The notes under the pieces were generated by a model. The model searched no databases and was not told where the DNA came from. It saw only the letters and a program-made list of their open reading frames with translations. Source: an uncultured Gemmatimonas sp. (GTDB lineage: Bacteria > Gemmatimonadota > Gemmatimonadetes > Gemmatimonadales > GWC2-71-9). Taken from it: a stretch of 64,000 bases of DNA. The translations under genes and the position numbers were made by a program. Of the stretch, positions 21,710-50,495 are shown piece after piece. The stretch spans positions 21,833 to 85,832 of the forward strand of contig CAYTMW010000006.1 in assembly GCA_964439025.1 (NCBI GenBank). The letters are read 5' to 3'. Numbering within the stretch: the first letter of the stretch is position 1; the number at the start of each line of letters is the position of its first letter.

Positions 21710-21961
21710 TGGTCGGGCGCGGAACTGCTCGTAGAGCCGCGCGGGCCGGTCGATCATCGGCACCCGCTCTCTGCGGATGAACCGGTGCCGGACCACGGTG
21801 CGCACGTCGAGCGGGTCGCCGGTGATCACCATGATGTTTGCAACCTTTCCGGGCTCGATGCTGCCGTACCGGTCGGCGATCCACCAGATCTGAGCCGGAT
21901 AGATCGTGAGCGCCCGGAGCGCTTCGTCCGGGTCGAGTCCGTACGCCGTCGCGAGCGCGGC
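21710..21961 (-). pseudogene. C-terminal remnant of an amidohydrolase paralogue
   Basis: ..YGLDPDEALRALTIYPAQ..YGSIEPGKVANIMVITGDPLDV..ARLYEQFRARP parallels the C-terminus of the 11033-12277 product. The N-terminal ~300 aa are missing and there is no stop at the expected position. Confidence 0.65.
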
Positions 21962-21962
21962 G

Positions 21963-22307
21963 TTGTTCCTGGCCCGCGTGCTCACCCACATCCCCGACAC
22001 GAGACAGGGCACGCCGCGGGACTATGGCTGGTACGCCAACCGCCCGCGGGGGATGCGGCGCCATCAGGCCGAGCCGGCCGATGCGACCGCACCCGGCATT
22101 CGGAGTGCCCGCGCGACCGCTCGCGCCCATCGGGCCCGTCGCCGCTGGGCCGAGCTGGTGCGGCAGATCGTCGAGGTGGACCCCTTGGCGTGCCCCCGAT
22201 GCGGGACCCTGATGCGCCTCATCAGCTTCATGGCGGCGCGGGCCGGCATCAATCACATCCTCACGCACCTCCGATCGATGCCGGGTACCAGCTGGCGCAC
22301 TTGGTGA
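21963..22307 (+). mobile_element. 3' fragment of an IS91-family (rolling-circle) transposase gene
   Basis: LFLARVLTHIPD..RDYGWYANRPRG..RRRWAELVRQIVEVDPLACPRCGTLMRLISFM..INHILTHL is the characteristic IS91 transposase C-terminus. No N-terminal part is present. Confidence 0.65.
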
Positions 22308-22316
22308 CGATGGGGA

Positions 22317-24923
22317 TCATTCTCGCGGTGTGGCGGTGAAACGAACCTCGCCAGTGGCACCGTCCATTTCGAGCTCATCGCCGTCCCGGATCAGGGTGGT
22401 GGCGCCGGCGACTCCGACGATGGTCGGAAGTCCCAGTTCGCGGCCCAGGATCGCGGCGTGCGAGAGGACGCTGCCCCGCTCGACGATCAGGCCTCGCGCG
22501 CCCAGCATGAGATAGAGCCAGCCCGGCTCGGTAGCCTCGGCGACCAGGATCTCGTCCTCGATCCGGTCGGTGAGTCGGGGGTTGAGCATGACGCGGGCGC
22601 GGCCGCGCGCGATCCCGGTCGCACAGGGGATCCCGCGCAGCAAGCCCCGCTCGGTGGGCACCAGCTCCGGCGCGCGAGTGGAATGGGGGTAATAGACGGT
22701 GCCGCGACAGACGATGCGGCTCGCCGCTTTGCCGGCGGGGAAGCCGGCGTAGCTAGCCCGCCGCAACGCCACGATGCCATGGAGATCGGCATCCGGCAAG
22801 CCGCCCTCGAACCAGGCTTCGAGCTCCTCGAGGGTGAGATAGAAAACCTCCTCTCGCGCACGGAGCGCCGCCTCCCGGGTGAGTGCGTGGCCGAGGGCGC
22901 CGAAGATCCGTCGCAGCGTGCCGTACGCGCGCGAACGGGCGTGCGAGAGGTTTTCCCGCGCGGCGATGGCCCGCCGCGCTTCCCCGAGGAGCCAGCGGGT
23001 TATGGTCCATGCGATCGGTCGGCCCCGCATCCCGCCGCGCAGCGCGGCTTCCGCCCGTTCCCGCTCCCGCCGGCGCAGAGCGGCGCGCCGCGCCGGATCC
23101 ACGCCGTAGGCGAGGTGATTCCGGAGCAATGCGACCATCTGGGCCGGATCGTCCGCCGGCGTGGTGCTCTCGAGCTTGAGCTCCTCGATGGTGCGATGCC
23201 CGTGCCGGGTGAGATGCTCGCGCACCAGCTCCAGGAATTGCACCGCGTCGGGGTGCTTCGTCAGCTCCGTCCAGACGGCGGCGGCGAGCGTCTCGCTCCG
23301 CAGCAGCGACTCCAATTCGGGGTGGCGCTTCAGCTCGGCGGCGATTGCTTCCAGCGACTCCGCCGAACCGAAACTCTCCACGCCGGTTAGTCCCGACAGC
23401 AGCCCGCGGTCGAAGGGCTTGCCCCCCACGCGGCGGCTCATTCGGGAGAGCCCCTCCAGGAGCAGAAACAGAAAGAGATCGTTCCAGATGAGCGCCGTCC
23501 AGGGCGGCAGCAGCTCCCGCCGGAGCCGCCGGTACTGCTCGAAGAGTTCTGCCGAGGAGAGGCCCTCCAATGTCAGCCCTTCATAGCGCTCCAGGACTTT
23601 CGGCACTGTCGCCCGGAAGCGCCGGACTTCGGCGCGCATGCCGAGGCAGCGCCCGGCGAACCGGACCAGGGTCCGCGTGATGGCCGGCAAGCGCCGCCGG
23701 CCGCCGCGTCGTCCCGCAACCGCCTCCACTCCCTTGCCATCCACGATGCCGAGCGCGCGCTCCCACGGGCCGACGGTGCGTTCCAGTCCTGGCACGAGGG
23801 AGAAGAGCGCGTGATAGTGGGTAAGGTTGAAGTAGAGCCGTCCGCGGACGATCCCCACCAGGTGAGCCAGGTGAGGCCGCGCCGCCTCGACCTCGCGTGA
23901 CGATACGCCGGCCTCCTGCAACGCGAGCCCGAACAACTGCGCGTAGGTGGAGCAGACCAAGGAAAAGGTGAGCGGCAGCGTGACGCCGGGATAGCTTTCG
24001 CCCACGTTGCTGTCGTCCCAGACGGCCAGCTTCCCTCCCGGCAGGCCCGTCGCGGGCCGGGCCTGAAGGAGCCAGAGCTTACCGCGCTCGTCCAGCGTCC
24101 ACTCGAGGTCGAGCGGTCCGCGCATTCGGCGCTGGAGCCGGGCCGCGGCTCGCGCCAGGCGATTGAGCTCTTCGGGCAGCAGCACCGGCACTGCACCCCA
24201 TGGACGAAGAGTCGTCTGCCACTCCCGAGCACCCTCGGGGCGCACGAAACGTTGTGTCTCGCCCCGGCCGCCGACGACAGCGTCCCCGAACCCCGCCGCT
24301 GCTTCGACGATCAGCATCGGCGCCCCAGTGACCGGGTCGGCGGTGAAGGCGACGCCACTGGTGCGGCTCGCGACCAGTCGCTGGACGATCACCGCGACGC
24401 GCGGAAACCCGTCCGCGCCGAAGCGGCGGCGGTAGAGGAGGGCCCGTCCAGAGAAGGCACTCGCCCACACTGCCGCGATCGCCACACCCAGTCCCTCGGG
24501 CGTGACACCGAGCCGGCTCTCCAATTGGCCGGCATGGCTCGCTCCGGCGCCGTCTTCGCCGACCATGCTCGAGCGCACCGCGAAGCGCGCCGCACTGAGT
24601 CGCTCCGCGCCGCGCTGGACCGCCTCGTAAAGCTCGAAGGGCCAGACGACGCCTTCCACCAGGCCGGCGATTGCGCGCGCGGCGCGATCGGCCTCTGCCG
24701 CGTCGGTGGCGGCTCCGGCCAGAGCGGCAATCGCGTCCTGGTGCGGGGCCAGGAGTTGCTCGCAGGTCTCCGCCGTCACCACGAACCACTCGGGGACGGC
24801 GAGTCCCGCTCCGCGCACCGCGGCGAGCGAGGCAGCCTTCTGCCCAATCGACGCCACCGGGACGTGGTCGTCGTGCCAGCGGAGGAAGGGCACGGCCAGC
24901 GGCTCAGCCGAGGTGGAAGCCAT
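22317..24923 (-). CDS. PEP-utilising (PpsA/rifampin-phosphotransferase-like) enzyme: N-terminal ATP-grasp, central domain, C-terminal swivel His domain
   Basis: N-terminal IGQKAASLAAVRGAGLAVPEWFVVT (PPDK_N-like). C-terminal ILVAEATEPGWLYLM..GLIVERGSVLSHAAILGRELGLPTIVG (phosphohistidine swivel). 868 aa. Confidence 0.8.
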   Translation of the reverse strand: MASTSAEPLAVPFLRWHDDHVPVASIGQKAASLAAVRGAGLAVPEWFVVTAETCEQLLAPHQDAIAALAGAATDAAEADRAARAIAGLVEGVVWPFELYEAVQRGAERLSAARFAVRSSMVGEDGAGASHAGQLESRLGVTPEGLGVAIAAVWASAFSGRALLYRRRFGADGFPRVAVIVQRLVASRTSGVAFTADPVTGAPMLIVEAAAGFGDAVVGGRGETQRFVRPEGAREWQTTLRPWGAVPVLLPEELNRLARAAARLQRRMRGPLDLEWTLDERGKLWLLQARPATGLPGGKLAVWDDSNVGESYPGVTLPLTFSLVCSTYAQLFGLALQEAGVSSREVEAARPHLAHLVGIVRGRLYFNLTHYHALFSLVPGLERTVGPWERALGIVDGKGVEAVAGRRGGRRRLPAITRTLVRFAGRCLGMRAEVRRFRATVPKVLERYEGLTLEGLSSAELFEQYRRLRRELLPPWTALIWNDLFLFLLLEGLSRMSRRVGGKPFDRGLLSGLTGVESFGSAESLEAIAAELKRHPELESLLRSETLAAAVWTELTKHPDAVQFLELVREHLTRHGHRTIEELKLESTTPADDPAQMVALLRNHLAYGVDPARRAALRRRERERAEAALRGGMRGRPIAWTITRWLLGEARRAIAARENLSHARSRAYGTLRRIFGALGHALTREAALRAREEVFYLTLEELEAWFEGGLPDADLHGIVALRRASYAGFPAGKAASRIVCRGTVYYPHSTRAPELVPTERGLLRGIPCATGIARGRARVMLNPRLTDRIEDEILVAEATEPGWLYLMLGARGLIVERGSVLSHAAILGRELGLPTIVGVAGATTLIRDGDELEMDGATGEVRFTATPRE

Positions 24924-25806
24924 GACGACTCACCAGTGAAAGGAGCAGTACCCCGTTGAGCGCGCCGGCGAACGCCTCGGCCCAGCGGCGCAGATCGGCG
25001 TGGGCCGCCGTCGGGTGCAGTAGGAGTCGGCCAACCGCAAAGCCCAGCGGGCCCAGCGGAAGCAGCAGGCGCAGGACCGCCACACCCTCGAGGCCGGCGG
25101 CCATCCCCGCCGGAACGAGGCAGCCTACGGTAAGCAGGGCGAACCCCAGCGGGAGCAGCGCCGCGCGGCGCCAGCCGAACTGCTTCGAATAGGTGCCGTA
25201 TTCGGTCTCATCCGCGGGAAGCCGAATTTTTCGCGCAATCTCCCACGCCCCGATTGCGAAGGTCGGCGCGAGCAGCACCGGGATCGTCCACAGCGTCAGC
25301 GCGGCCGCGGGCCAGCGCTCCAGGAACACCACGACCGCATAGCCCCCCAACAGCACGGCCCCGCTCTTCCGGGCGAGGTAGGCCGCCGGCGGCGGATGCC
25401 TGGCCCAGCTCCGCACGAAGAACCAGCGGAAGCCAAGCCAGGTGACAGCGAGGCCGCCAAGCAAGGCGACGAGCATCGGGCCTGGACCGAACGAGCCAGC
25501 CAGCGCAACGAGTAGCAACCCGATACCGACGGCGAGACCGCGCACCTCACCGAGCTCCACCTCGCCGGTCACCAGCGGGCGGTTGCGATAGCGCGGATCT
25601 CCAGCCTTGCCGAGCCGGATGTCCTCGGGTGCGTCGTGCACGTCGTCGAGCAGGCGCACGAACAGCAGCCAGAACGCGATCGTGACCGCTCCGACCGCTC
25701 CGCGGGAGTCGAGCCGGAGCGGCCTCACGCCGGCCAGCGCCTGCAGCGCGAAATAGGAGGTCAGGAAGCCGAGCGCGCCCAGCGCGCCCTGGGTCCAGGG
25801 GAACAT
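24904..25806 (-). CDS. UbiA-superfamily prenyl/phosphoribosyl-transferase-like membrane protein
   Basis: LLDDVHDAPEDIRLG (DDxxDxxxD), RNRPLVTGEV, several TM segments, second acidic patch PADETEYGTYS. Start is uncertain (ATG 25806, GTG 25815, or upstream to 25935). Confidence 0.65.
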   Translation of the reverse strand: MFPWTQGALGALGFLTSYFALQALAGVRPLRLDSRGAVGAVTIAFWLLFVRLLDDVHDAPEDIRLGKAGDPRYRNRPLVTGEVELGEVRGLAVGIGLLLVALAGSFGPGPMLVALLGGLAVTWLGFRWFFVRSWARHPPPAAYLARKSGAVLLGGYAVVVFLERWPAAALTLWTIPVLLAPTFAIGAWEIARKIRLPADETEYGTYSKQFGWRRAALLPLGFALLTVGCLVPAGMAAGLEGVAVLRLLLPLGPLGFAVGRLLLHPTAAHADLRRWAEAFAGALNGVLLLSLVSRHGFHLG

Positions 25807-25838
25807 CGTCCGCACGTAGTGCGCGAGACGAAGCGCGC

Positions 25839-26450
25839 TCAGACCGCGCCGGCCGCCGGCCGACTCCGCCGTTGCCGCCTGGGCCGTGCCGTGCCGAACA
25901 TCACGTCCCACAGCGACGTCGTGAAACCGTAGCATCGCGTGTCATCCCGGTAATGGTGATAGAGATGGTGGCGCCGCCACATCCGCAGCAGCGGTCCCCC
26001 GCCCCGGCCAAAGTGGATCGCATAGTGGATCAGCTCGTAGGCGAGGTAGCCGGCCAGCACTCCCGAGAGGATCGCCGCTGCCGGCGCCCAAGCCCCGGTG
26101 AGGATACGGAGGATGCCCGCTACCAGGGCGGCGAGAGGGAGCGACAACCAGAGCGGAATCACGAAGAAGGCCGGGTCGTTCGGCGCCTGATGATGTGCGA
26201 GATGCTGTTGCCGGCGCAGCAGCCATTCCGCGCGGGGCACCAGATGGAAGAGAAACCGATGCCCCACGTATTCGATCAGGGTCCAGAGGACCAACCCACC
26301 TCCCAGCTCGGCGATCCAGCGCCACCCCGGTACGCTTCCCGCGCGGAGACTCAGCCACAAGGCCACCGCCAAGACCGGCGGGAAGGCGAGCAGGACGCGG
26401 AGGCTCGGGCCCGCCGGCACCTCGCGCACTACCTCGGAAACCGTTCTCAT
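25839..26450 (-). CDS. fatty acid hydroxylase superfamily protein, FA2H/Scs7-like
   Basis: LIEYVGHRFLFH, HLAHHQAPND, YELIHYAIH, WRRHHLYHH, YGFTTSLWDVMFGT. Start at the ATG 26450 gives an ATGA overlap with the desaturase stop. Confidence 0.8.
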   Translation of the reverse strand: MRTVSEVVREVPAGPSLRVLLAFPPVLAVALWLSLRAGSVPGWRWIAELGGGLVLWTLIEYVGHRFLFHLVPRAEWLLRRQQHLAHHQAPNDPAFFVIPLWLSLPLAALVAGILRILTGAWAPAAAILSGVLAGYLAYELIHYAIHFGRGGGPLLRMWRRHHLYHHYRDDTRCYGFTTSLWDVMFGTARPRRQRRSRPAAGAV

Positions 26451-27394
26451 GCTTCCCCCCTTTCCGGTGCCGGTACTCGGCCATGGAAGCCCCGGCGCGC
26501 GGCCTCCCAGATGAACCGCACATAGGAACGGCAGACCGGCGCGCCGGCAGCGCAGAACTCCTCCTGGAGCAGCGCGTGAACGCGCGGCAGGTTGTACCAC
26601 GGCACCGCGGGCAGGAGGTGATGCTCGAGGTGATAGTTCAGGTTGCACATGAGCAAGCTCACCACGCGGTTGCTCGTGATCGTCCGGGTGGCATGCAGCG
26701 GGTGGTCGGAGCTGGTCAGCATGTGCTCCGACCAGCCTCTCACATTCACGATGATCCACGCGACTCCCATCGGCGCCAGCCAGCCGTGCAGCAGCAGGTC
26801 AAGGCGGCCCGCCTCGCGCGCCCAAAGCAGAACTGCGGCGGCGAGCCCGAGGATCGCGGCGTATTCGAGCACCACCTCGCGGCGTTCCCGCGGCGTGCCG
26901 CGGCCAAGCGCCGTGAGGGGGACGTGTCCCAGGAAGATCAGCATGCCGATCGCCGCCCAGACGTAGAAGGCGATCGCCTGCGCCCGGAAACCCTTGAAGT
27001 GATTGGCGAACTCGTCCGGATCCTCGGGCCCACGGTTGTGCCGATGATGCCGCAGATGGGTTACCCGGTACGCGGCGCCGGACACGAGGACCGGGGCACC
27101 GAGCAGAAAGGCCGCCCACCGGTCGCGCCGACGCTCGCGAAACAGGTTGCCGTGGACTGCCTCGTGCATGAGGATTCCCAGTCCGTGGAGCGCGGCACCC
27201 ATGAGGAGGTACGCCGGCAGCCGTACCGGCCAGATCGGCCAATGCGCCACAACCACCCAGGGAACGATCCAGAGCGCGAAGAAGAACAGGATGATCGCGC
27301 TGCGCCGCCGGTCCACACGCTGCAGCGCGCGCAACGCCGCGCGGGTGTCGGGCGCGAGGCTGTTCAGCCAAGCCGCCGTTCCTGTCGCCCTCAT
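26447..27394 (-). CDS. membrane fatty acid / sphingolipid-type desaturase
   Basis: Three histidine boxes: HEAVHGNLF, THLRHHRHN, NYHLEHHLLPAVPWYNLP. Start trimmed to MRATGTAAW, overlapping the GNAT stop. Confidence 0.8.
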   Translation of the reverse strand: MRATGTAAWLNSLAPDTRAALRALQRVDRRRSAIILFFFALWIVPWVVVAHWPIWPVRLPAYLLMGAALHGLGILMHEAVHGNLFRERRRDRWAAFLLGAPVLVSGAAYRVTHLRHHRHNRGPEDPDEFANHFKGFRAQAIAFYVWAAIGMLIFLGHVPLTALGRGTPRERREVVLEYAAILGLAAAVLLWAREAGRLDLLLHGWLAPMGVAWIIVNVRGWSEHMLTSSDHPLHATRTITSNRVVSLLMCNLNYHLEHHLLPAVPWYNLPRVHALLQEEFCAAGAPVCRSYVRFIWEAARRGFHGRVPAPERGEA

Positions 27395-28560
27395 CGGTCG
27401 GCTCCTTCCAGCCGTCTCTCGTACAGTCGGTAGGTCTTGCAGGGCTCGCCGCCGAAGGCGCCGATGACTCGCTGGATCCGGACGTTGTCCGCGAGGACGA
27501 GCGAGAGCTCCACCTCGGCAATGCCGAGGCGCCGGCAGGCTTGCGCGGTTTCCCAGGCGAGCAGTCCCGCTACGCCCTTTCCGCCCTCGCCCGGTTGTAC
27601 GCCGAGCAGGACGAAGCGCGCGGTGGTGAGGCGGGGGATCATGCGGGTGAGGCGCAGCCAGCCGAAGGGCCAGAGGCGGCCGCGGGCAGGCGCGAGAGCG
27701 CGGTTCACATCGGGCAGGGTGAGCCCGAACCCCACCGGAACTCCGTCCCGCTCGGCAAACAACACCAGCTCGGGGCGGATGAAGGGCCGCATCCGGCCCG
27801 CCCGTTCCGCGAACTCCTCTAGGGTCAGGGGCGTGAAGCCCCACACCGATTCGAACGTGGCCGAGTAGAGGGCGAGCGCCGCGGCAACCTCGGAATCCCA
27901 CCGGTGCAGGTCCATTGGGCGGATCTGCACACCGGCAAGCGGTCCCCGGCCGGCCCGCGCCTCGAGCAGCCGCTGCTCGACCTCGGGGCATGGGTCGCGG
28001 AACGCTTCACCACGGAAGGAGTAGTAGTCACGAAATCCGCGGTACCCCGCCGCCACGAGCAGGCCGGGGTACCAGGGAGGATTCCACGGCGAGAGCACCA
28101 TCGGGGGCGAGCCGAAGCCGCTGACGAGAAGCCCCGTCTCATCGTGGAAAGTCAGGTTCACCGGGCCGAGCAGCCGGTGCATCCCTGCGTCCGCGATCGC
28201 CTGCTCCGCCGCCTCCAGGAGCGCGCGAGCGGTGCCGGGATCCTGCTCGCACTCGAAGAAGCCGAAGAGTCCAGTGTCCGGCTCCCAGCGCTCGGCAAAG
28301 CCGCGGTCGATGATCGCGGCGATCCGGCCGACGACTCGCCCGTTCCGGAGCGCCAGGAACCGTTGCACGGAGCGAGTCCGCAGGGAGGGATTGTGCTGCG
28401 GATCCCAGCGCCGCGATTCCTCCCTTCGTAGCGGCGGCACCCAACAGGGATCCCCGCCGTGCAACTGGTAGGGAAGCTCGACAAACGCGCGGTGCGCCTG
28501 GCGTCCTTCCACCGGGATGACCCGGATGGCCGTGGGCGGCGAAGCGATGACCGTCGTCAT
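27391..28560 (-). CDS. GNAT-fold N-acyltransferase (389 aa)
   Basis: N-terminal FVELPYQLHGGDPCWVPPL. C-terminal GNAT core LLGVQPGEGGKGVAGLLAWE..VELSLVLADN. ATGA overlap with the upstream synthase gene. Confidence 0.7.
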   Translation of the reverse strand: MTTVIASPPTAIRVIPVEGRQAHRAFVELPYQLHGGDPCWVPPLRREESRRWDPQHNPSLRTRSVQRFLALRNGRVVGRIAAIIDRGFAERWEPDTGLFGFFECEQDPGTARALLEAAEQAIADAGMHRLLGPVNLTFHDETGLLVSGFGSPPMVLSPWNPPWYPGLLVAAGYRGFRDYYSFRGEAFRDPCPEVEQRLLEARAGRGPLAGVQIRPMDLHRWDSEVAAALALYSATFESVWGFTPLTLEEFAERAGRMRPFIRPELVLFAERDGVPVGFGLTLPDVNRALAPARGRLWPFGWLRLTRMIPRLTTARFVLLGVQPGEGGKGVAGLLAWETAQACRRLGIAEVELSLVLADNVRIQRVIGAFGGEPCKTYRLYERRLEGADR

Positions 28561-29837
28561 GGCCGGGACCAGGTCGCGATCGCCGCGACCCCTTCCGAAA
28601 TGTCACGCGCAGAATGCGCCGCCGTCGCGCAGAGGCGCAGCCGGGCTCGTCCCGCCGGAACGGCGGGATGGGTCACGGCGGTGGCCAGGACACCTGCGGC
28701 GAACAACCGGCGGGCCAGCCGGTAGGCCTCCATTTCAGGCCCAACGAGGAGCGGCACGATCGGCGTCGGCCACTCACAGAGGGGGTGGCCGCTGCGGCGC
28801 AGACCGCTCCTGAGCTGTACCGCGCGGAGGCGCATCCGCTCGAGCCTGAGCGGCTCTCGGCGAATGACGGAAAGCCCCTCGAGCGCCGCGGCGGTCGAGG
28901 CGGGACAGAGCGCCCCGGAGAAGATGTACGGGGCTCCTTCGTGCTGCAGGTAGGTGATCAACCGTGCGCTCCCCGCTACGTACCCACCCTGCGCACCGAG
29001 TGCCTTCGAGAGGGAGCCCGTCCAGACATCCACCTCGCCCGGATCGATTCCGAAGTGCGCTGCGGTGCCCCGGCCGGCTGGCCCGATGGTGCCCAGCGCG
29101 TGCGCCTCGTCCACCAGCAGGAGGGCCCGGTGACGGCGACAGACGGCGAGGATGTCGGGGAGGGGAGCGATGTCGCCCTCCATCGAGTACACCCCGTCCA
29201 CCATCACCAGGCGCCGCGGGGTAGCAGCTTCCTCGGCGAGAGCCCGGTCGAGCGCGGCGGGATCGTTGTGACGGCAGCGGCGCAGGCGTGCCCTGGAGAG
29301 CCGGCCGGCATCCAGCAGGCTGCGGTGCGCCAGCGCGTCGGCGATGATGACGTCACCCGACCCCACCAGCGCCGGGACGACGGCAAGGTTCGCCGCATAG
29401 CCTGAGCCGAGGACCAGTGCGGCCTCGCTCCCGATGAACCGGGCGAGCTCCCGCTCCAGCGCACAGTGCAGCTCGTTGGTGCCGGTAAGCAGACGGACGC
29501 CGCCGCTGCCTGGGCCATAGCGGCGGATGGCCGCGATCGCGGCCTCCTCCACCTCGGGATGACCGATCAGCCCGAGATAGTCATAGGATGAGAGACTGAG
29601 GTAGGGCCGTCCGCGAATGCGGATTCGCGGACCGGTCCGGCCTTCGAGAGGTTGCTGGCAGGTGTAGAGATCCTCCTGGCGGCCGAACCGGAGCAGCCTG
29701 AACCACCGCTCGGCAGCCGGGAGGTCCAAGAGCGCCCGCTCGCATCGTTGGGAGGGCTCCAGCCCACCGAGAACGGTGGACGGGCGCTCTTGCGAATCGG
29801 TCTGCAGCGGAGCCGGCGAGGCCATGGCAATCTCCAT
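28557..29837 (-). CDS. PLP-dependent alpha-oxoamine synthase (serine palmitoyltransferase / AONS / KBL family)
   Basis: SSYDYLGL, GSGYAANL, VDEAHALG, TGSLSKALG (PLP lysine), C-terminal RLRLCATAAHS. Confidence 0.85.
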   Translation of the reverse strand: MEIAMASPAPLQTDSQERPSTVLGGLEPSQRCERALLDLPAAERWFRLLRFGRQEDLYTCQQPLEGRTGPRIRIRGRPYLSLSSYDYLGLIGHPEVEEAAIAAIRRYGPGSGGVRLLTGTNELHCALERELARFIGSEAALVLGSGYAANLAVVPALVGSGDVIIADALAHRSLLDAGRLSRARLRRCRHNDPAALDRALAEEAATPRRLVMVDGVYSMEGDIAPLPDILAVCRRHRALLLVDEAHALGTIGPAGRGTAAHFGIDPGEVDVWTGSLSKALGAQGGYVAGSARLITYLQHEGAPYIFSGALCPASTAAALEGLSVIRREPLRLERMRLRAVQLRSGLRRSGHPLCEWPTPIVPLLVGPEMEAYRLARRLFAAGVLATAVTHPAVPAGRARLRLCATAAHSARDISEGVAAIATWSRP

Positions 29838-29870
29838 CCGTCAGGACGGGGAGTACGATGGGCGCACGGA
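29761..29870. repeat. 110-bp direct repeat, copy 1 (5' end of the oxoamine synthase gene plus 33 nt upstream)
   Basis: Identical to 32071-32180 except for 2 mismatches (29841 T/C, 29866 A/G). Also visible as identical N-termini of ORFs 29776+ and 32086+. Confidence 0.95.
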
Positions 29871-32000: not shown

Positions 32001-32070
32001 CCCGCCATCTTGCGCACGGTGGCTTGCGATCAAGCCCAAGGGACGCTCCAGTGGCCCCACTCGGGCTTTC

Positions 32071-32180
32071 AGCCCACCGAGAACGGTGGACGGGCGCTCT
32101 TGCGAATCGGTCTGCAGCGGAGCCGGCGAGGCCATGGCAATCTCCATCCGCCAGGACGGGGAGTACGATGGGCGCGCGGA
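32071..32180. repeat. 110-bp direct repeat, copy 2 (orphan copy of the synthase 5' end)
   Basis: See copy 1. Starts 14 nt after the recQ stop. On the minus strand it opens a 49-codon ORF: MEIAMASPAPLQTDSQERPSTVLGGL, then divergent sequence. Confidence 0.95.
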
Positions 32181-32194
32181 ACCTCACGCAGCAT

Positions 32195-33787
32195 TCAACC
32201 GTCCTCCGAAAGCGCCTCGAGCATGGTCCGCCCGTATCGTTGCACTACGAGCGGCCCCACTCCCTCGACCTCCGCCAGGGCCTCGGCGCTCACGGGGGGA
32301 TCGGTGGCCAGACGCCGGAGAACCTCCGGCTCGATGGCGCATCCGTTCCAGGGGGAGTCGACGTGCGCGAGCGCGAGCCGGAGGCGGCCAAGACGGCGAT
32401 CCGCCGCAGGATCGCAAACCGGCCGCGGCGCGCTTCGGGAGCAGAGGTCACACCCCGAGCAGCGGGGCAGCTGCTCTCCGAAGTAGCCGATCAACGCGCG
32501 CCGCCGGCAGGCGGTGCTCCGCGCGTAGCGATCCATGACCTCGATTCGCGCCAGCGCGGCGATCCGGCGGAGCCGCACCGGTCTCCAGTCGATTACGCCA
32601 CCGCGGGGCCGGAGCTCCCGGTGCAGCCGCTCGAGCGAAGCGCGCAGATTGGCGGGAACGCGTGCCGCGTCGAGCTCGCCGCGCCAGACCCGCTCCGCGA
32701 GCGGCTCGTTCGGGAAGGTCACGTCGAGCTGGCGCCGGGGCAATGTCGCGTCTCCCGGGCGATAGAGGAGCAGACACCGGGCGAGCCCGCCGTCGCGGCC
32801 GGCTCGTCCCGATTCCTGGTAGTAGGCCTCCGGTGTGGACGGGAGTGTCCAGTGCACCACGAGCCGGACATTCGGTTTGTCGATGCCCATGCCGAACGCG
32901 CACGTCGCAACGAGGACCCCGATCCGGTCGGCCATGAACCGCTCGAGCACCTCGCGGCGAACCGGTGCGGCCAGCCCCGCATGATACGCCGCGGCGCGGA
33001 AGCCCGCCTCCCGAAGCACCCGAGCGAGTTCCTCGACCAGGTTCCGCGTGGGAGCATAGACGATCGCCAGCGCCTGCTGCCAGCGCAGTGCGTCCACCAG
33101 CGTAGCGAAGCGCTCGCGCTCATTGCCGACGCGCGCGACACCAAACCAGAGATTGCGGCGATCGAAGGAGCCGAGCACGACACCGAGTCCTCTCGCCCCG
33201 CCAAGGCCGATGGCGCGCACGACCTCGTGGCGCACGGCCTGCGTCGCGCTGCCGGTGAGCGCGATGGCCTGGGGCCACCCGAGCTGGGCGCGGAGCCGCC
33301 GGAGCGAGCGATAGGAAGGCCGGAAATCGGGGCCCCATTCGCTGATGCAGTGCGCTTCGTCTACCGCGAGCAACGCGGGGCAACAGCTCCGCGCCGCCAG
33401 GTCCTCCGCGAGCCGCCCGAGCCGCTCGGGGGAGGTGTACACCAGCTGGACCTCGCCGCGGGTAATCCGGTCGAGCGCCGCGCGTTGCGCCCCGGCGTCG
33501 AGAGTGCTGTTGAGCGCCTCGGCGGGAATACCCCGGGCGCGCGCGGCGGCGACCTGATCCTGCATGAGCGAGATGAGGGGTGACACGACGATGGTCGGTG
33601 CGGCGCGCAGCAGAGCGGGAATCTGGAAACAGATCGACTTCCCCGCCCCGGTAGGCAGCACCGCGAGCACGTCCCGGCCCTCGTCGAGCGCGGCCATGAC
33701 GCGGGCCTGCAGCGGCCGGAACTCGGCGTAGCCGAAGTGCTCGAGGAGGAGGGTTTGCGCCGGCGCCAGGGGAAGTACGAGTGGCAT
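32195..33787 (-). CDS. recQ: ATP-dependent DNA helicase RecQ
   Basis: FGYAEFRPLQ, LPTGAGKSICFQIPAL, DEAHCISEWGPDFRPSY, zinc-binding C..C..C region. Confidence 0.92.
   Translation of the reverse strand: MPLVLPLAPAQTLLLEHFGYAEFRPLQARVMAALDEGRDVLAVLPTGAGKSICFQIPALLRAAPTIVVSPLISLMQDQVAAARARGIPAEALNSTLDAGAQRAALDRITRGEVQLVYTSPERLGRLAEDLAARSCCPALLAVDEAHCISEWGPDFRPSYRSLRRLRAQLGWPQAIALTGSATQAVRHEVVRAIGLGGARGLGVVLGSFDRRNLWFGVARVGNERERFATLVDALRWQQALAIVYAPTRNLVEELARVLREAGFRAAAYHAGLAAPVRREVLERFMADRIGVLVATCAFGMGIDKPNVRLVVHWTLPSTPEAYYQESGRAGRDGGLARCLLLYRPGDATLPRRQLDVTFPNEPLAERVWRGELDAARVPANLRASLERLHRELRPRGGVIDWRPVRLRRIAALARIEVMDRYARSTACRRRALIGYFGEQLPRCSGCDLCSRSAPRPVCDPAADRRLGRLRLALAHVDSPWNGCAIEPEVLRRLATDPPVSAEALAEVEGVGPLVVQRYGRTMLEALSEDG

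Positions 33788-37401: not shown

Positions 37402-37421
<20 letters not shown>
34545..37421 (-). CDS. S8 (subtilisin-family) serine peptidase lipoprotein with TPPII-like domain spacing
   Basis: GILDSGLDPG (Asp), GHGTHVAGIAAAHG (His, about 175 aa later), GTSMASPHVAGIAAVLAS (Ser). Lipobox LATLAAC after the trimmed start MPRLRAERR. C-terminal region of about 470 aa. Confidence 0.85.
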
Positions 37422-39037
<1,616 letters not shown>

Positions 39038-39048
<11 letters not shown>

Positions 39049-39457
39049 GATGCGCGGCCGCCCAGGTGTTGATGTACTGGATGAGCTCCGTGGTGGGAGT
39101 GCCCGGCCCGAAGAGGCGGCCCACCCCGCGCTGCTGCAGGGCCTCGATGTCCTCGCGGGGAATGATGCCCCCGCCGGTAAGGAGGACGTCCGTGCGGCCC
39201 ATCTCGTCGAGGAGCCGGCGGACCCGGGGAAAGAGCGTCATGTGCGCGCCGCTCAGGATCGAGAGACCCACGACGTCCACGTCCTCCTGGACTGCCGCGG
39301 TCGCGATCATCTCCGGGGTCTGGTGCAGCCCGGTATAGATGACTTCCATCCCCGCGTCCCGCAGGGCCGCCGCGACCACCTTGGCGCCGCGGTCGTGGCC
39401 ATCGAGGCCGGGCTTGGCGACAAGAATCCGAATTGGTCGAGTTCGAGCAGTCGACAC
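39038..39457 (-). CDS. methylmalonyl-CoA mutase-type cobalamin-binding small subunit
   Basis: [35 protein letters not shown] (DxHxxG B12 motif), [13 protein letters not shown]. Confidence 0.9.
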
Positions 39458-39470
39458 AGATCCCTTTCTG

Positions 39471-39553
39471 TAGGCAGTAGGGAGTGGGCAGTGGGCAGTA
39501 GGAGAAAGCCTGTCCTATTGCCTATTGCCTACTGCCCATTGCCTACTGCCTTA
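39471..39553. repeat. tandem-heptamer hairpin, GGCAGT(A/G) units, twin of 13985-14068
   Basis: TAGGCAGTAGGGAGTGGGCAGTGGGCAGTAGG - loop - CTATTGCCTATTGCCTACTGCCCATTGCCTACTGCC. Lies between the eRF1-like gene stop and the B12-subunit start. Confidence 0.85.
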
Positions 39554-40714
39554 CCGAAATCTTAGTAACGCGGCAATCCCGTTAATCGTCTCCGCCGCAT
39601 CGGGCTCGAAGACCACGTCGAGGTCGACCCGCTGGCGCAGCGCTTCCTCGATTGCATCGTCGATCACGTCGGGAGCCGGGATTGCCGCTCCGAGGCTCCG
39701 GCAATCCCGGGCATTGAGCGTGAGCTTTCCGGTCACACCGCAGCGGAAACCCGGCACGCTCGCATCGGCGCGCACGAGCAGCGTGCGCACCTGACCCTTG
39801 GCGAGCGCATCGAGCGTGGCCCCGATGCCGTTCACGGCCCAGCCGGAGCCCTGCCCCAGGAGCATTTCGGCGACCAGGTGCCGCTCCAGCTTCCGCTCGA
39901 ACGCCTCCCGGACTTCGAGCGCGGTCGCGTGCACATCGGCGATCGACGCCTTTCGCCGCGCCATCCGCGCGGTGCCGACGACCTTGCCGGCGACGTACGG
40001 GTGGAGAAACATCCGGAGCGAATCGGCCTCGTTGCCCGCCGAGGCAAGCACGATCCCCCGGACGGGCTCCCGGCGATCCAGGTCGAAGAGCCGCGCGGCG
40101 ACGGCGTCGAAGAGCTGTTCCCGCTCATGCCGGAGCCGGTTATGGAACCCGTGCTCCCCTTTGCCTGGCGCCTCGTGCCGGTCGCTGTGGAAGCGGCCGC
40201 CTTTCCGGGCGGTGGCTTCGATGTCGGCGATCTTCTTCGCTTCGAATGCCGTGACTTCGTAAATCGTCGCCCCGCTCTTGTCCACTTCCGCGAGCAGGAG
40301 ACGGCCCACTTCATCCTCGAGCGCGGCGAGCTCCCGCACCAGCGCTGTCCGGTCCACCAGCAGGCGGGAGCGATGCACCCGCGGGAGCGGGATGATCTCG
40401 AAGAGACCGAGCGGTTTGGAGACGAAGACGGCCAGCCCCTGCGTCGGCGGCAGCGCATCGGGCCGCTGCAGCATCACCTGAAGCTTGTGCAGATCGCCGA
40501 TCACCTGCTCAGTCTCCTGCCGGTCGAGACCTTCTGCGGGGAGCGCCTCGATCACCTCACGGATGCGATTCTTGAGCTTGATCAGGTACTTCCCCCGCGA
40601 GCGATCGCGCGGCTCCAGCTTGAGGTAACAGCTCACGATCCAGTGTTTGCCCGCAGGCAGCCGCACCAGCCGCTGGAGCTGGCGCCGGATCTCGGTCAGC
40701 GCGCGCGATGCCAT
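39551..40714 (-). CDS. archaeo-eukaryotic release factor (eRF1/Pelota)-like protein, bacterial baeRF-type
   Basis: ARKGGRFHSDRHE..FHNRLRHEREQLFDAVAARL parallels the eRF1 GGQ-loop segment. C-terminal WAVNGIGATLDALAKGQVRTLLV resembles the eRF1/Pelota domain pattern. AGGAG overlaps the mutase stop 9 nt upstream. Confidence 0.5.
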   Translation of the reverse strand: MASRALTEIRRQLQRLVRLPAGKHWIVSCYLKLEPRDRSRGKYLIKLKNRIREVIEALPAEGLDRQETEQVIGDLHKLQVMLQRPDALPPTQGLAVFVSKPLGLFEIIPLPRVHRSRLLVDRTALVRELAALEDEVGRLLLAEVDKSGATIYEVTAFEAKKIADIEATARKGGRFHSDRHEAPGKGEHGFHNRLRHEREQLFDAVAARLFDLDRREPVRGIVLASAGNEADSLRMFLHPYVAGKVVGTARMARRKASIADVHATALEVREAFERKLERHLVAEMLLGQGSGWAVNGIGATLDALAKGQVRTLLVRADASVPGFRCGVTGKLTLNARDCRSLGAAIPAPDVIDDAIEEALRQRVDLDVVFEPDAAETINGIAALLRFR

Positions 40715-40723
40715 CGGTCGCTC

Positions 40724-42391
40724 CTAGAAAAAAACCGGCTCGCGGTAGGCGCCGTACACCCGCTCGAGCACCTCGCGAATCTCGAACAGAGTGCAATAGG
40801 CGCGGGCGCAATCCATCATCCCGGGAATCACATTACGGTCGGCGACGGCGGCGGCGTGCAGCGCGGCGAGAGTCGCTTCCACCCGGGTCCCGTCCCGCCC
40901 GGCGCGGAGTCGCGCCATGCGGCCGCGCTGCACCCGGTCGGCGTCGTCGCCGATGCGGAGGATCTCCGGCGGGGCGGCCTCCTCCTCGACGAAATCGTTG
41001 ACGCCGACGATGACCCGCCTCTCGCTCTCGAGCTCCGACTGGAAGCGCGCGGCGCTCTGCGCGATCTGGCGCTGGAACCACCCCGACTCGATCGCCGGGA
41101 CCACTCCCCCCTGGGCCTCGATGTCCGCGAACAGCGCTTCGGCCTCGCGCTCCATCTGGTCGGTGAGCGCCTCGACGTAATAGGAACCGCCCAGCGGATC
41201 GGCGGTGTTGGGGACGCCGGTCTCCACGGCCAGGATCTGCTGCGTCCGGAGCGCGATACGCACCGATTCTTCGGTGGGAAGGGCAAGCGTCTCGTCGAGT
41301 GCGTTGGTGTGCAGCGACTGGGTTCCCCCCAGCACGGCCGCCAGCGCCTGGTACGCGACCCGGACGATGTTGTTCATCGGCTGCTGGGCGGTGAGGGTGA
41401 CCCCGGCGGTCTGGCAGTGGAACCGCATTTTCCAGCTGCGCTCGTCCCGCGCCCCGTAGCGCTCGCGGAGATGGCGCGCCCAGATCCTGCGAGCGGCGCG
41501 CATCTTGGCGATCTCCTCGAAGAAATCGTTATGTACGTCCCAGAAGAATGAGAGGCGCGGCGCGAAGGTGTCGACCGCCAGGCCGCGCGCGACGCCGTGC
41601 TCGATGTAGGAAAAGCCGTTGGCGAGCGTGAACGCCAGCTCCTGGGACGCGGTGGCTCCGGCCTCACGGATGTGGTACCCGGAGATCGAAATGGTGTTCC
41701 ACTGCGGGGTGTGCTCCGCCGCCCACTCGAACATGTCCACGATGATCTTGAGCGCGGGCTCCGGCGGATACACCCAGGCGTGCTGCGCCATGTACTCCTT
41801 GAGGATGTCGTTCTGCACCGTCCCCTGAAGCTTCCGGATATCCACCCCCTGCCGCTCGGCTGCCGCCACGTAAAAACAGAACAGGATCGCGGCGGGACCG
41901 TTGATGGTCATGGACGTCGAGACGCGGTCGAGAGGAATCCCGTCGAAGAGCGTCTCCATGTCGGCCAGACTGGAGATCGCGACGCCGCACTTGCCCACCT
42001 CGCCCTCGGAGCGCGGATGGTCGGAGTCGTATCCCATCAGCGTGGGAAAATCGAACGCGACGGACAAGCCCGTCTGCCCGCGCTCAAGCAGAAACTTGTA
42101 GCGCCGGTTGGTGTCCTCCGCCGTGCCGAAGCCGGCGAACTGCCGCATCGTCCACAATTTTCCGCGGTACATCGTGGGATGAATCCCACGAGTGAAGGGC
42201 CAGATTCCCGGCAGCTCGCCGGGGTCCCCGAGCGTGCCTGCGAGGTCGAGTGGGGTGTACACCGGCTCGACCGGACGCCCGGAGACGCTGGTGAATTCGA
42301 CGTCCCGGCGCGTCGGCAGTTTGCCATAGGAGGCCCGCCACTCCGCCACCTCGGCCCGCAGCCGCTCCAACTCCGCGTCGCGTGCACTCAT
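40724..42391 (-). CDS. methylmalonyl-CoA mutase, large catalytic subunit
   Basis: [60 protein letters not shown]. Start at the ATG 42391 (ATGA overlap with the meaB stop). The 951-aa track ORF is a run-on. Confidence 0.93.
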
Positions 42392-43443
42392 ACCCGCGCT
42401 CCTTCCTTCATACCGGCCACGATGTCCATTGCGAGCTCGTAGGGACTGATTCGCCCGGCAGCGAGGTCGTCGAGGCGCTCCCGCAGGAGCTCCTCGGCGC
42501 GGGTCTCCCGCCAGATCCACCGGTGGACCGACCGATCCACCACCTCGCGCGTGCGCGCGGCGAGCCGCTTGGTCCGGCGCGCGGCGAGCTCGCCGGTCTC
42601 CTGCATCCAGCGGTAGTGCTTCTCGAGCGCCTCGACCAGCGCCTCGGTGCCTTCCCCCTTCGCCGCGGAGGTGAGGAGCACCGGATGCTCCCAGGCCGGA
42701 GCGGCGCGGCCGTCCTGCACGCCCGTTCCAGCGGCGGCCGCGCGCGCCGCTGCGCTGAGGTCCACACCGTGATGCGCCTTCATCCCCCGGAACGCATTGC
42801 CCATCCGGATACCGAGGGTCACCTCGATCTCGCGCGCGAGCGTGTCCGCGCCGGGGCGGTCCGCCTTGTTGACGACGTACAGGTCCGCCGCTTCCATCAC
42901 ACCCGACTTGAGGGTCTGAATGGCGTCGCCCGATTCGGGGACCAGCAGGAGCACGGTGGAATCGGCCATTCCGGTGACTGCGAGCTCCGATTGCCCCACG
43001 CCCACGGTCTCGATCAGGATGCGCTGAAAGCCCCCGGCATCGAGGACATCGCAGACCTCGCGGGTGCTGGTGGCGAGACCGCCGACCGAGCCTCGCGTCG
43101 CCATCGACCGGATATAGACGCCGCGATCCATGGCGACCGATTCCATGCGGATCCGGTCGCCGAGCAGCGCGCCTCCCGAGAAGGGACTGGTGGGATCGAC
43201 CGCCACGACGGCCACCGTGTATCCCCGCTCGCGCCAGGCCTGGACCAGCAGCCGGGTGAGGGTCGACTTTCCCGCGCCGGGCGGGCCGGTGATGCCGACC
43301 CGATGCGCCTGGCCGAGTCGCGGATGCACCGCGGCGAGGAGCTGCTCGAAACCCGGCCGCCCGTTTTCCACGACGGAAATCGCGCGGGCCAACGCGGCAG
43401 TCCGGCCCGCGGCGAGGTCGGCGATGAGCGTGTCGAGATCCAT
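42388..43443 (-). CDS. meaB: methylmalonyl-CoA mutase-associated G3E GTPase
   Basis: [13 protein letters not shown] (P-loop), [39 protein letters not shown]. Confidence 0.92.
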
Positions 43444-43458
43444 GCTGGAAAGTGGCAC

Positions 43459-43526
43459 GGAGGAGGCAAAGAGGCAAAGAGGCACAGAGGCAGGTGGTTT
43501 TCTTTGCCTCCTTGCCTCCTTGCCGC
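43459..43526. repeat. tandem-octamer hairpin, GAGGCAAA / TTTGCCTC units
   Basis: GGAGGAGGCAAAGAGGCAAAGAGGCACAGAGGCAGG - TGGTTTTC - TTTGCCTCCTTGCCTCCTTGCCGC, immediately 3' of the mgtE stop. Confidence 0.8.
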
Positions 43527-44870
43527 TTACAACAGGAGCAGTCCCCCCAGCCCAAGGAGCAAGGCGAACCCGCAGACATCGGTGAAGGCGGTCACGAAAA
43601 TGGACGACGCGATGGCGGGATCGATGTTGAAGCGCTTGAGGAGGAGCGGGATGGACGCCCCGGCGAAACCGGCGACGAAGAGATTCCCCGTCATGGCGAG
43701 GAAGACGAGCAGGCCGAACATTGCCGACATGCCGGTGATGAGGGCGACGACCGTCGCCACCGCGCCGATGGCGAGCCCATTCGTCACCCCGACCAGTATC
43801 TCCTTGGTGATGACTTGGCGGAAATCCTCGCGGGAAATCAGCCCGAGGGCCAGTCGCCGTACGGTGACCGCGAGTGCCTGGGTCCCGGTGTTTCCCCCCA
43901 TGCCCGCGATGACCGGCATCCAGACCGTGAGGGCGATGAAGCGGCTCAGGTTCGACTGGAAATAGGCGACGACCCCTCCTGCCGCGAAGGCGGTGACGAG
44001 GTTGACGAGCAGCCAGGGGAGCCGGGTCTTGACCGCCTCGAACCAGCGGGCGCCGAGATCCTCGGTGGCGGAGACACCACCGAACCGCAGGAGGTCTTCC
44101 GTCGCCTCCATCTCGACCACGTCGGACACGTCGTCGAAGGTGATCCGGCCCAGCAGGCGGCCGTCCCGGTCCACCACCGGAATGCTGGGCACGTTGTACC
44201 GGGCCATCAGGCGCGCCACTTCTTCCTGGTCCATCTCCGGTCCGACGGTGACGTCGGGCTCCTGCATCAGCTCGCGGACGGGACGGTCCGGCGCCCCGAG
44301 CACCAGCTGCTTGAAGCCCAGGATTCCGAGCAGCCGCCGGTTCTGGTCGAGCACGTAGACCTCGGCAAATTCCTCCACGTCCTCCGCCTGCTTCCGGATG
44401 TTCTCGAGAGCGTCGCGCACCGTTTCGTCTTCATTCACGGTGACCATCGCCCCGGTCATCAGGCCGCCGGCAGATTCCTCGTCGTACTCGAGCAGCCGCT
44501 CGACGGTGCGGCGCTCCTCCGGCTCCACCGCCGAGAGAATCCGCTGCTGCTGCTCCGGCTCCAGCTCGCCGAGGAGATCGGCCGCATCGTCGTCCGGCAT
44601 CTCCCCGACGATCTCGGCTGCCTGCTCGGTGGTCAGCGCCGCGAGCGTATCCTCCGCGTGCTCCACGTCCGGCATGGCGACCAGCGCCCCGCCGGTGAGA
44701 TCCGGCGGCAATAGCTTGGCGATCTCGACCCGCTCGTCCTCATCCGCCAGGGCCAGCACGTCGGCGAGATCGGCCGGCTCGAGCATCCTGGCCCGCGCGA
44801 AGAACTCGCTGACGTTCCCATCACGCAGCAGCGCGATCATCTTGGCCGGCTTGAGCGGCTTCTTGATCAT
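43527..44870 (-). CDS. mgtE: magnesium transporter MgtE
   Basis: N-domain, tandem CBS ([19 protein letters not shown]), C-terminal TM domain with [13 protein letters not shown]. Confidence 0.92.
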
Positions 44871-50435: not shown

Positions 50436-50495
50436 CGGGCCAAACGTAACGGGCGCCAAGAGGGGGATCAAGCAACGGACGACTACATTCCTCCC

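Follow-up and report, generated by a model that had tools for sequence, protein, structure and literature searches.

A six-gene operon of an uncultured Gemmatimonas sp. that may make a decorated ceramide-type lipid, and its conserved module of GNAT, UbiA-like and Rph-like genes

What would be the product of an operon in which a ceramide-synthase-family acyltransferase stands together with a UbiA-type transferase and a phosphoenolpyruvate (PEP)-utilising enzyme? Such an operon is present in a 64,000-nucleotide stretch of contig CAYTMW010000006.1 from an uncultured Gemmatimonas sp. (hereafter the window, in whose numbering positions are given unless a locus is named). Its six genes, here called g1 to g6, follow one another in a single direction on the minus strand and span 22317-29837, exactly as described in an earlier note made from the sequence alone (the original prediction), which had suggested a ceramide-type lipid pathway. 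Our analysis points to a decorated sphingolipid-like (ceramide-type) envelope lipid that is further phosphorylated or alkylated, and we put the probability of this reading at about 0.55. The ceramide-type proposal was borne out by the family of the GNAT acyltransferase, the context of the synthase and the hydroxylase, but not by the synthase models or by the specificity of the desaturase. We regard the first two genes as a further member of the known ceramide pathway, the whole operon as a variant of it, and the module composed of the GNAT, the UbiA-like protein and the enzyme related to rifampin phosphotransferase (Rph) as the most interesting lead.

Bacterial sphingolipid synthesis has been defined genetically only recently, and the chemistry of its head groups and tailoring is known from few model organisms. 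The operon ties a ceramide-synthase-family enzyme to a UbiA-type transferase and an Rph-type kinase, and the module reaches genetically tractable, host-associated bacteria (Streptococcus sanguinis, S. cristatus and Butyrivibrio). In the literature searched, we found no earlier link of a UbiA-type transferase or an Rph-type kinase to sphingolipids, and no description of the UbiA/Rph/GNAT module or of Gemmatimonadota sphingolipids, absence there being no proof of novelty; a paper on the lipocone superfamily does not contain the module either.

The genes are tightly coupled. As read from the sequence, ATGA start/stop overlaps occur at g1/g2 (28557-28560), g2/g3 (27391-27394) and g3/g4 (26447-26450), and g5 and g6 overlap by 20 nucleotides (24904-24923). 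An overlap had been claimed for every junction; it was confirmed for four of the five, the exception being g4/g5, where a gap of 32 nucleotides was found. The six family calls made earlier, including the UbiA-like g5 and the PEP-utilising g6, agreed with Pfam, with g5 just below the cutoff and supported by its fold. The gene order is also kept in relatives, as a synteny check confirmed: all six genes were found in identical order in loci L006 and L015 at protein identities of about 50-60%, and the order was near-complete in L005, which has the operon minus the hydroxylase, and in L018. Because this order persists across genomes at such identities, the arrangement is not accidental.

The ceramide-type genes of the operon

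The decisive test of the proposal was the comparison of the GNAT with bacterial ceramide synthase (bCerS). g2 (27391-28560, minus strand, 389 aa) was 30% identical to YghO of E. coli BL21 over 379 of its 389 residues (BLASTP, E = 8e-60). The N-acyltransferase that dihydroceramide synthesis requires has been listed as CC_1154 (CCNA_01212) in Caulobacter and as yghO (ECD_02850) by the Geiger laboratory (PMC9386255). In the RefSeq genome of E. coli BL21(DE3), yghO lies beside genes for a fatty acyl-AMP ligase (FAAL), an NAD-dependent epimerase-family (CerR-like) protein, an acyl carrier protein (ACP) and spt. Since the alignment covers the full length and YghO is the orthologue of CC_1154, g2 is a member of the bCerS/YghO family of N-acyltransferases. 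Pfam placed an Acetyltransf_1 match (3.9e-08) on its C-terminal GNAT domain. A sequence search of the Protein Data Bank (PDB) gave nothing useful, and for this reason we used a fold search; the AlphaFold2 (AF2) model of g2 (pLDDT 87.8) has a tandem-GNAT fold resembling MshD.

In a neighbour-joining (NJ) tree, all Gemmatimonadota GNATs formed one clade that was sister to E. coli YghO and apart from the GNATs of other UbiA loci. Note that this is a midpoint-rooted distance tree whose groupings are indicative only. The Gemmatimonadota clade spans four contexts, namely synthase with UbiA and Rph, synthase with reductase and kinase, UbiA and Rph alone, and standalone.

g1 (28557-29837, minus strand, 426 aa), which overlaps g2, matched Aminotran_1_2 (PF00155) at 1.7e-52. 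In an alignment with E. coli Spt, BioF and Kbl, its catalytic residues His171, Asp243, His246, Lys278 and Arg401 were invariant, and with these fold-type I pyridoxal-phosphate (PLP) residues intact (Schiff-base Lys, stacking His, Asp/His pair and carboxylate-binding Arg) g1 is a member of the PLP-dependent alpha-oxoamine synthase family. The "Spt-like" clade B of this family has been defined by genomic association with bCerS (PMC11334938). g1 shows this association, as its ATGA overlap is with a YghO-family gene, and the pairing recurs in L005, L006, L015, L001 and L004; the synthases adjoining bCerS-like genes in L001, L004, L005 and L006 are 55-59% identical to g1. In addition, L001/L002 and L004 hold a synthase of the g1 clade, a GNAT of the same clade, and a reductase of the alcohol dehydrogenase (ADH) or short-chain dehydrogenase/reductase (SDR) type, and L001/L002 also carry a lipid kinase with DAGK_cat/YegS_C domains. 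This kinase belongs to the broad class that also includes the Caulobacter ceramide kinase CpgB. These gene sets are close to the canonical ceramide 1-phosphate set.

The profile of the g1 clade gave its best score among solved structures on the serine palmitoyltransferase (SPT) of Sphingobacterium (3a2b, 359 bits), followed by the Thermus enzyme (338), KBL (313) and BioF (293). With g1 as a single sequence, the scores were 264 bits for Thermus AONS/KBL (7poa), 242 for Sphingobacterium SPT, 232 for KBL and 231 for BioF, and CqsA structures were the weakest full-length matches (~102 bits). Owing to its association with bCerS, reductase and kinase genes and its SPT-leaning profile, the g1 clade appears Spt-like by association and weakly so by profile. 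The earlier call of a serine-palmitoyltransferase-type synthase was therefore upheld in part: the clade profile scored best on a solved SPT, but g1 passed no curated Spt model and was near-equidistant from its E. coli references as a single sequence (scores below). g1 is the sole oxoamine synthase in the window.

Separately, a row of genes adjoins the bCerS-like GNAT gene in L001 (3627-9901) and L004 (4420-9953), namely two for B12-binding radical SAM proteins, one for the synthase and one for a FemAB_like/Acetyltransf_6 ("BioF2-like") acyltransferase, and one related protein (P0239) is a synthase fused to a FemAB-like protein. The FemAB_like/DUF482 type was ruled out as bCerS, as the acyltransferase of L001/L004, which served as a negative control for the g2 comparison, matched YghO only at E = 1.6.

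The window thus shares with the ceramide pathway of Caulobacter and E. coli BL21 an oxoamine synthase directly followed by a full-length YghO/bCerS-family N-acyltransferase, and it adds four genes (g3 to g6) that are absent from the E. coli spt cluster. The first two of these encode membrane enzymes. g4 (25839-26450, minus strand, 203 aa), which had been likened to FA2H/Scs7, proved a good match to that type. FA_hydroxylase (5.6e-19) was its sole Pfam domain, its only PDB sequence matches were the structures 4zr1 and 4zr0 of the yeast ceramide 2-hydroxylase Scs7 (best E = 5.8e-15), and in the alignment with 4zr1 over residues 52-188 its HRFLFH, HxxHH, HxxxH and HHxxHH motifs were all in register. 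g4 shares these di-iron His motifs with Scs7/FA2H, but it is a short protein and has no cytochrome b5 domain at its N-terminus. g3 (26447-27394, minus strand, 315 aa) is a membrane three-His-box desaturase/hydroxylase with FA_desaturase (PF00487, 4.3e-43) as its sole Pfam domain. Its likeness to dihydroceramide desaturases, which had been drawn from the third His box, turned out to be generic: the Lipid_DES domain that marks DES1/DEGS was absent in the Pfam scan, and the best NCBIfam models (GntB 72.9, CrtR 47.4 and CrtW 36.8 bits) were each far under cutoff. The quoted motif is common to the desaturase family. Among the related loci searched, g3 orthologues were seen solely in synthase-containing operons (L005, L006, L015 and L018).

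The UbiA-like and Rph-like proteins and their module

g6 (22317-24923, minus strand, 868 aa) ends the operon. Pfam found PPDK_N (5.9e-51) and PEP-utilizers (5.4e-22) in it, and the C-terminal PEP/pyruvate-binding TIM-barrel was not found in the same scan. Its best PDB matches, 5hv1 and 5fbs (E = 6e-47), were deposited as "phosphoenolpyruvate synthase", and we take them to be the rifampin phosphotransferase of Listeria. The alignment with 5hv1 takes in both ends of the protein, i.e., the ATP-grasp domain and the swivelling His domain. In the alignment of the PDB match, the His-domain motif reads GSVLSHAAILGRELGLP against GGLMTHGAVIAREYGLP, and the His motif GSVLSHAAILGRE is in register with GGLMTHGAVIARE of 5hv1. 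In addition, homologues of g6 carry the Pfam domain Rph_4th. Because g6 is Rph-like over both domains, keeps the His motif and has no PEP/pyruvate domain, it is predicted to be a small-molecule phosphotransferase of the rifampin-phosphotransferase type, ATP-dependent and built of an ATP-grasp domain, a substrate-binding middle domain and a swivelling His domain, and not a PEP synthase. A gluconeogenic PEP synthase was rejected on the missing PEP-binding domain and on a TIGR01418 score of 206 bits against a cutoff of 740. g6 is not an Rph equivalog either (221 bits, cutoff 999), and it scored 207 bits on PigC (cutoff 1300) and 201 bits on RedH (cutoff 1350). Rph and PigC/RedH have the three-part architecture and the conserved His-domain motif in common with g6; the g6 family differs in being paired with a UbiA-like membrane protein, a pairing not known for Rph or PigC/RedH.

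g5 (24904-25806, minus strand, 300 aa) scored 33.3 bits on the Pfam UbiA model, just below the cutoff of 34.2, and its S. sanguinis orthologue scored 36.5. Here too the PDB sequence search gave nothing useful, so that the fold was searched. With its AF2 model (pLDDT 89), the top Foldseek matches were the archaeal digeranylgeranylglyceryl phosphate (DGGGP) synthases 6m31 and 7bpu and ApUbiA 4od4, at probability 1.0 and template-modelling (TM) scores of 0.55-0.62 (0.49-0.62, again at probability 1.0, when AfUbiA was included). Relatives numbered 19 by a word-indexed search and 301 cluster representatives by an exhaustive search, and a species-level genome scan returned 344 loci with g5-like genes. 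Across 86 sequences of the family, R51, D54, D58, D62, R76, W188-E-x-x-R-K, P197, E-T-x-Y and G211 were invariant, and G81 (99%), R195, D199 and T-Y-S (205-207) were 93-99% conserved. The first Asp-rich motif is intact (D-x3-D-x3-D followed by R-P-x3-G). g5 shares this motif and the fold with the UbiA superfamily, including DGGGP synthase, and is 13-18% identical to solved members, but where the superfamily has its canonical second motif in a D-x3-D context, g5 has the mostly invariant W-E-x2-R-K-x-R-x-P-x-D-E-T-x-Y-x-T-Y-S. By these features, g5 is a putative intramembrane transferase of a distinct UbiA subfamily (NCBIfam PRK13592 type).

The original prediction had noted g5 and g6 as genes attached to a ceramide locus. 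They are more than a loose addition, as the two form, together with a YghO-like GNAT, a module that is kept across many lineages, from soil bacteria to oral streptococci. We retrieved 80 loci and searched the translations of all their open reading frames (ORFs), taking the proteins of the window and of related loci as queries. In 72 of the 80 loci, a g6-like kinase, here called class A (the paralogue to which g6 is orthologous), lies no more than 8 kb from the UbiA-like gene, and in 66 the two genes are direct neighbours; a YghO-like GNAT was found in 64. Of the 39 loci in which the sequence extends 6 kb or more to either side of the UbiA-like gene, 38 have the class A kinase and 35 the GNAT. 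The taxa of the UbiA-like loci include Gemmatimonadota, Planctomycetota, Myxococcales, Proteobacteria, Acidobacteriota, Spirochaetales, many Clostridia and Bacteroides-labelled metagenome-assembled genomes. Named carriers of the UbiA-like gene include S. sanguinis, S. cristatus, S. ferus and Anaeromyxobacter oryzae, and Butyrivibrio is also among the carriers of the module.

The neighbours of the module differ among lineages. CDP-archaeol-synthase-like (CarS-like), phosphatidylserine synthase (Pss) and decarboxylase (Psd) genes are frequent; other, lineage-specific neighbours are a BtaA-like DUF3419 gene with Psd, P450s, a sulfotransferase and, between kinase and GNAT, an AMP-binding enzyme of the fatty-acid activating type. 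MMPL genes also occur near the module, with LolA-like and DUF1302 genes in addition in one Proteobacteria locus (L037), and we read these as export genes. The constancy of the trio beside variable head-group, transport and activating genes argues that its product is a membrane lipid. Less firmly, the variation of head-group genes by lineage while the trio stays suggests that the trio builds the hydrophobic core of that lipid.

The operon of S. sanguinis SK1 (L060, 5399-14410) is an example. It encodes, in order, a CarS-like protein, a second, class B Rph-like kinase, an archaetidylserine-synthase-like CDP-alcohol transferase, Psd, the UbiA-like protein, the class A kinase and the GNAT. Its UbiA-like/class A Rph-like/GNAT trio is common to the window and stands in the same relative order, whereas the oxoamine synthase, desaturase and hydroxylase are lacking and the CarS-like, second Rph-like, archaetidylserine-synthase-like and Psd genes are present instead. 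NCBIfam names the UbiA-like protein "prenyltransferase" (PRK13592) and the class A kinase "phosphoenolpyruvate synthase" (PRK06241.2-3), and the latter name is probably misleading. No functional study of this operon was found in the literature searched.

In four Gemmatimonadota loci the trio occurs without a synthase, and each of them has, upstream of the GNAT gene and divergent from it, a gene for a B12-binding radical SAM protein (L017, 6175-7611; L019, 3422-4921; L020, 4909-6423; L036, 7082-8779). An NmrA-like NAD(P)-binding protein is encoded close by in L017 and L036.

Proposed product and alternative readings

For the decorated ceramide-type lipid, the following order of events can be proposed. 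g1 would form a 3-keto long-chain base by condensing a fatty acyl thioester with an amino acid (most probably L-serine), a step that its family and residues allow and whose substrates are assumed. g2 would N-acylate this base to 3-keto-dihydroceramide, the family again being observed and the substrate presumed. In Caulobacter, N-acylation of the keto base has been proposed to precede its reduction (PMC11087976). The 3-keto group might be kept, or reduced by an unlinked enzyme. As expected from their families, g3 and g4 would act as O2-dependent di-iron membrane enzymes for desaturation or hydroxylation of the chain and 2-hydroxylation of the amide-linked acyl group, g4 being a putative FA2H/Scs7-type fatty-acyl 2-hydroxylase.

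g6 would phosphorylate a hydroxyl by means of ATP and a phospho-histidine, the simplest target being the C1-OH of the lipid, and would thereby fill the place of the DAGK-type ceramide kinase of the sister clusters and of Caulobacter. The Caulobacter ceramide kinase CpgB shares the GGDG motif and has been compared with YegS. Like the ceramide 1-phosphate route of the CpgB type, for which L001/L002 carry GNAT, reductase and DAGK_cat/YegS_C kinase, the window ends in a kinase-type enzyme; the fold of g6 is nevertheless unrelated to that of CpgB, being of the PEP-utilising/Rph type with a phospho-His intermediate and ATP-to-AMP chemistry. In the weakest step of the scheme, g5 might alkylate the lipid or its phosphate within the membrane, with a donor (e.g., a polyprenyl donor) that is activated by phosphate or diphosphate. 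In favour of the scheme, the fold of g5 is of the UbiA type and comes closest to that of DGGGP synthase, which forms lipid ethers. Other chemistries considered for g5 and g6 were a transfer to the lipid phosphate of the phosphoribosyl pyrophosphate (PRPP) type, as in DPPR synthase, an enol-phosphate or elimination reaction on a 3-keto lipid, and the cyclodehydration of an acylamino ketone. g2, g5 and g6 together would then be the local copy of the conserved three-gene lipid module, joined here to a supply of sphingoid base.

Several points weigh against this reading. g1 failed all curated Spt models (NF047600, 314.5 bits against a cutoff of 640; NF047599, 285.3 against 500; NF047603, 212.7 against 670). 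Its top curated model was BioF (TIGR00858, 383.8 bits), which was again below the cutoff (426.45), so that g1 lies under every NCBIfam equivalog cutoff, Spt and BioF alike. As a single sequence, it scored 218 bits on E. coli Kbl, 209 on Spt and 197 on BioF, and its amino-acid specificity does not appear to be readable from the protein itself. The canonical pathway has CerR, ACP and acyl-ACP synthetase, whereas genes for all three are absent from the 64-kb window, as examined by Pfam for about 40 ORFs and by phmmer for all ORFs; g1 also stands outside the curated Spt models that describe that pathway's synthase. The phmmer queries were E. coli CerR, ACP and FAAL, the NmrA-like protein of L017, the ADH of L001 and the SDR of L004. 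The earlier remark that the operon has no CerR-type reductase or ACP is thus extended to the window. The Pfam scan also gave no match to a DAGK-type kinase, CarS, Pss or Psd. For g5 and g6, the parts played in the scheme are inferred. L018 has the synthase operon minus the GNAT. Finally, only one of the 39 well-flanked loci of the module has an oxoamine synthase; as the other 38 have none, the amine substrate of the GNAT family need not be a sphingoid base.

The last points lead to the alternative that survives best, although we regard it as rather doubtful. In it, the trio builds a non-sphingoid amide or ether lipid (e.g., an N-acylated isoprenoid-bearing amino-alcohol or a phospho-amino lipid), g1, g3 and g4 supply or tailor a precursor, and the amine acylated by the GNAT is not the product of g1. 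The occurrence of the trio without oxoamine synthase in Firmicutes, Proteobacteria, Planctomycetota, Myxococcota, Acidobacteriota and the four Gemmatimonadota loci fits this alternative, as do the change of head-group genes around a constant trio (CarS/Pss/Psd or BtaA-like with Psd) and the GNAT-less L018. It is opposed by the NJ tree, in which the window GNAT groups with YghO and not with the GNATs of other UbiA loci, by the ATGA overlap of g1 and g2, and by the same GNAT clade being found in the near-canonical clusters of Spt, reductase and kinase.

Because the trio is widely conserved and mostly without an oxoamine synthase, the sphingoid part may be a lineage-specific add-on and not the core. 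A broader suggestion, possible and put forward tentatively, is that the trio is the core of an undescribed, widespread lipid family of ceramide analogues in which an acyl chain is held in amide linkage and the UbiA-like enzyme has attached a group that is probably isoprenoid. Their head groups would be archaeal-style CDP-dependent serine/ethanolamine or betaine-type ones depending on the lineage, oral streptococci, gut Clostridia, myxobacteria and planctomycetes would be among the producers, and the Gemmatimonadota operon would be a variant fed by a sphingoid base. If the module does make a new lipid class, annotations as "phosphoenolpyruvate synthase" and "prenyltransferase" would have to be reread and the uses of the bCerS family would be widened, and a testable case would be given of archaeal-type head-group enzymes (CarS-like and archaetidylserine-synthase-like) being active in bacteria.

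It is unlikely that the product is not a structural membrane lipid but a diffusible N-acyl amino-ketone or another small secondary metabolite or signal, comparable to the products of CqsA and of prodiginine PigH/PigC. Oxoamine synthases do also produce CAI-1 and prodiginine intermediates, g6 does score on the PigC and RedH ligase models, and with no reductase the product would remain a ketone. However, those ligase scores are far under their cutoffs, CqsA gave the weakest full-length matches to g1, and no pyrrole or polyketide synthase/non-ribosomal peptide synthetase (PKS/NRPS) genes were seen among the window ORFs scanned. Furthermore, half of the six proteins (the desaturase, the hydroxylase and the UbiA-like protein) are of membrane-enzyme families, and related loci hold MMPL, LolA-like and phospholipid head-group genes. 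Least probable by far is that g1 is the host's BioF or Kbl, serving biotin or threonine metabolism and standing by chance beside unrelated genes: BioF is its best curated model and Thermus AONS/KBL its best PDB match, but g1 is under the BioF cutoff, no bioA, bioB, bioC, bioD or tdh was found among the roughly 40 window ORFs scanned with Pfam, and the overlap with a bCerS-family gene, the gene order kept across genomes at 50-60% identity and the preference of the clade profile for SPT all speak against it.

Operon borders and neighbouring genes

The G+C content is 0.69-0.71 throughout the operon, and a scan found no terminator-like sites inside it. A sigma-70 promoter scan returned no site, such a scan being uninformative for this phylum. 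The 32-nucleotide spacer lies between the g4 stop at 25839 and the supported g5 start, an ATG at 25806. This start was chosen because the 97%-identical homologue P0241 measures 300 aa, and because a separate gene call on a Logan contig, which carries a GNAT protein identical to g2, gave a 300-aa UbiA gene 32 nucleotides past the hydroxylase stop. The alternative ATG at 25935, which would overlap g4 by 97 nucleotides, was rejected as homologues give it no support. The Logan contig with the operon genes starts within g1.

Downstream, g6 faces a convergent gene. The ORF right past the g6 stop (21906-22307, plus strand) has a weak C-terminal match to Y2_Tnp (IS91-like; E = 0.003, below the Pfam cutoff) and may be what is left of a transposase at the 3' border of the operon. 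At the other end, a 111-nucleotide direct repeat (98% identical) has just two copies in the window, at 29760-29870 and 32070-32180. The first copy spans the first 26 codons of g1 and 33 nucleotides upstream, and the second begins ~15 nucleotides beyond the stop of a recQ-like gene (32195-33787). The 2.2 kb between the copies have a lower G+C content of 0.63 and hold three small ORFs, one of them with a PEP-CTERM motif. This stretch appears to have arisen through an insertion or a duplication between recQ and the operon.

Two further groups of genes were observed elsewhere in the window. A radical SAM gene (50346-51563, plus strand) overlaps by one base a gene for a PlsC-type acyltransferase (51563-52897, plus strand), and these may be another lipid-related pair. 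A gene at 39551-40714 (minus strand) encodes a protein with bacterial archaeo-eukaryotic release-factor-like (baeRF) domains of family 10 and family 2; it adjoins a gene for a 951-aa methylmalonyl-CoA-mutase-like protein (40724-43579), and a B12-binding gene (39038-39457) and a carboxyltransferase gene (37402-39048) lie nearby.

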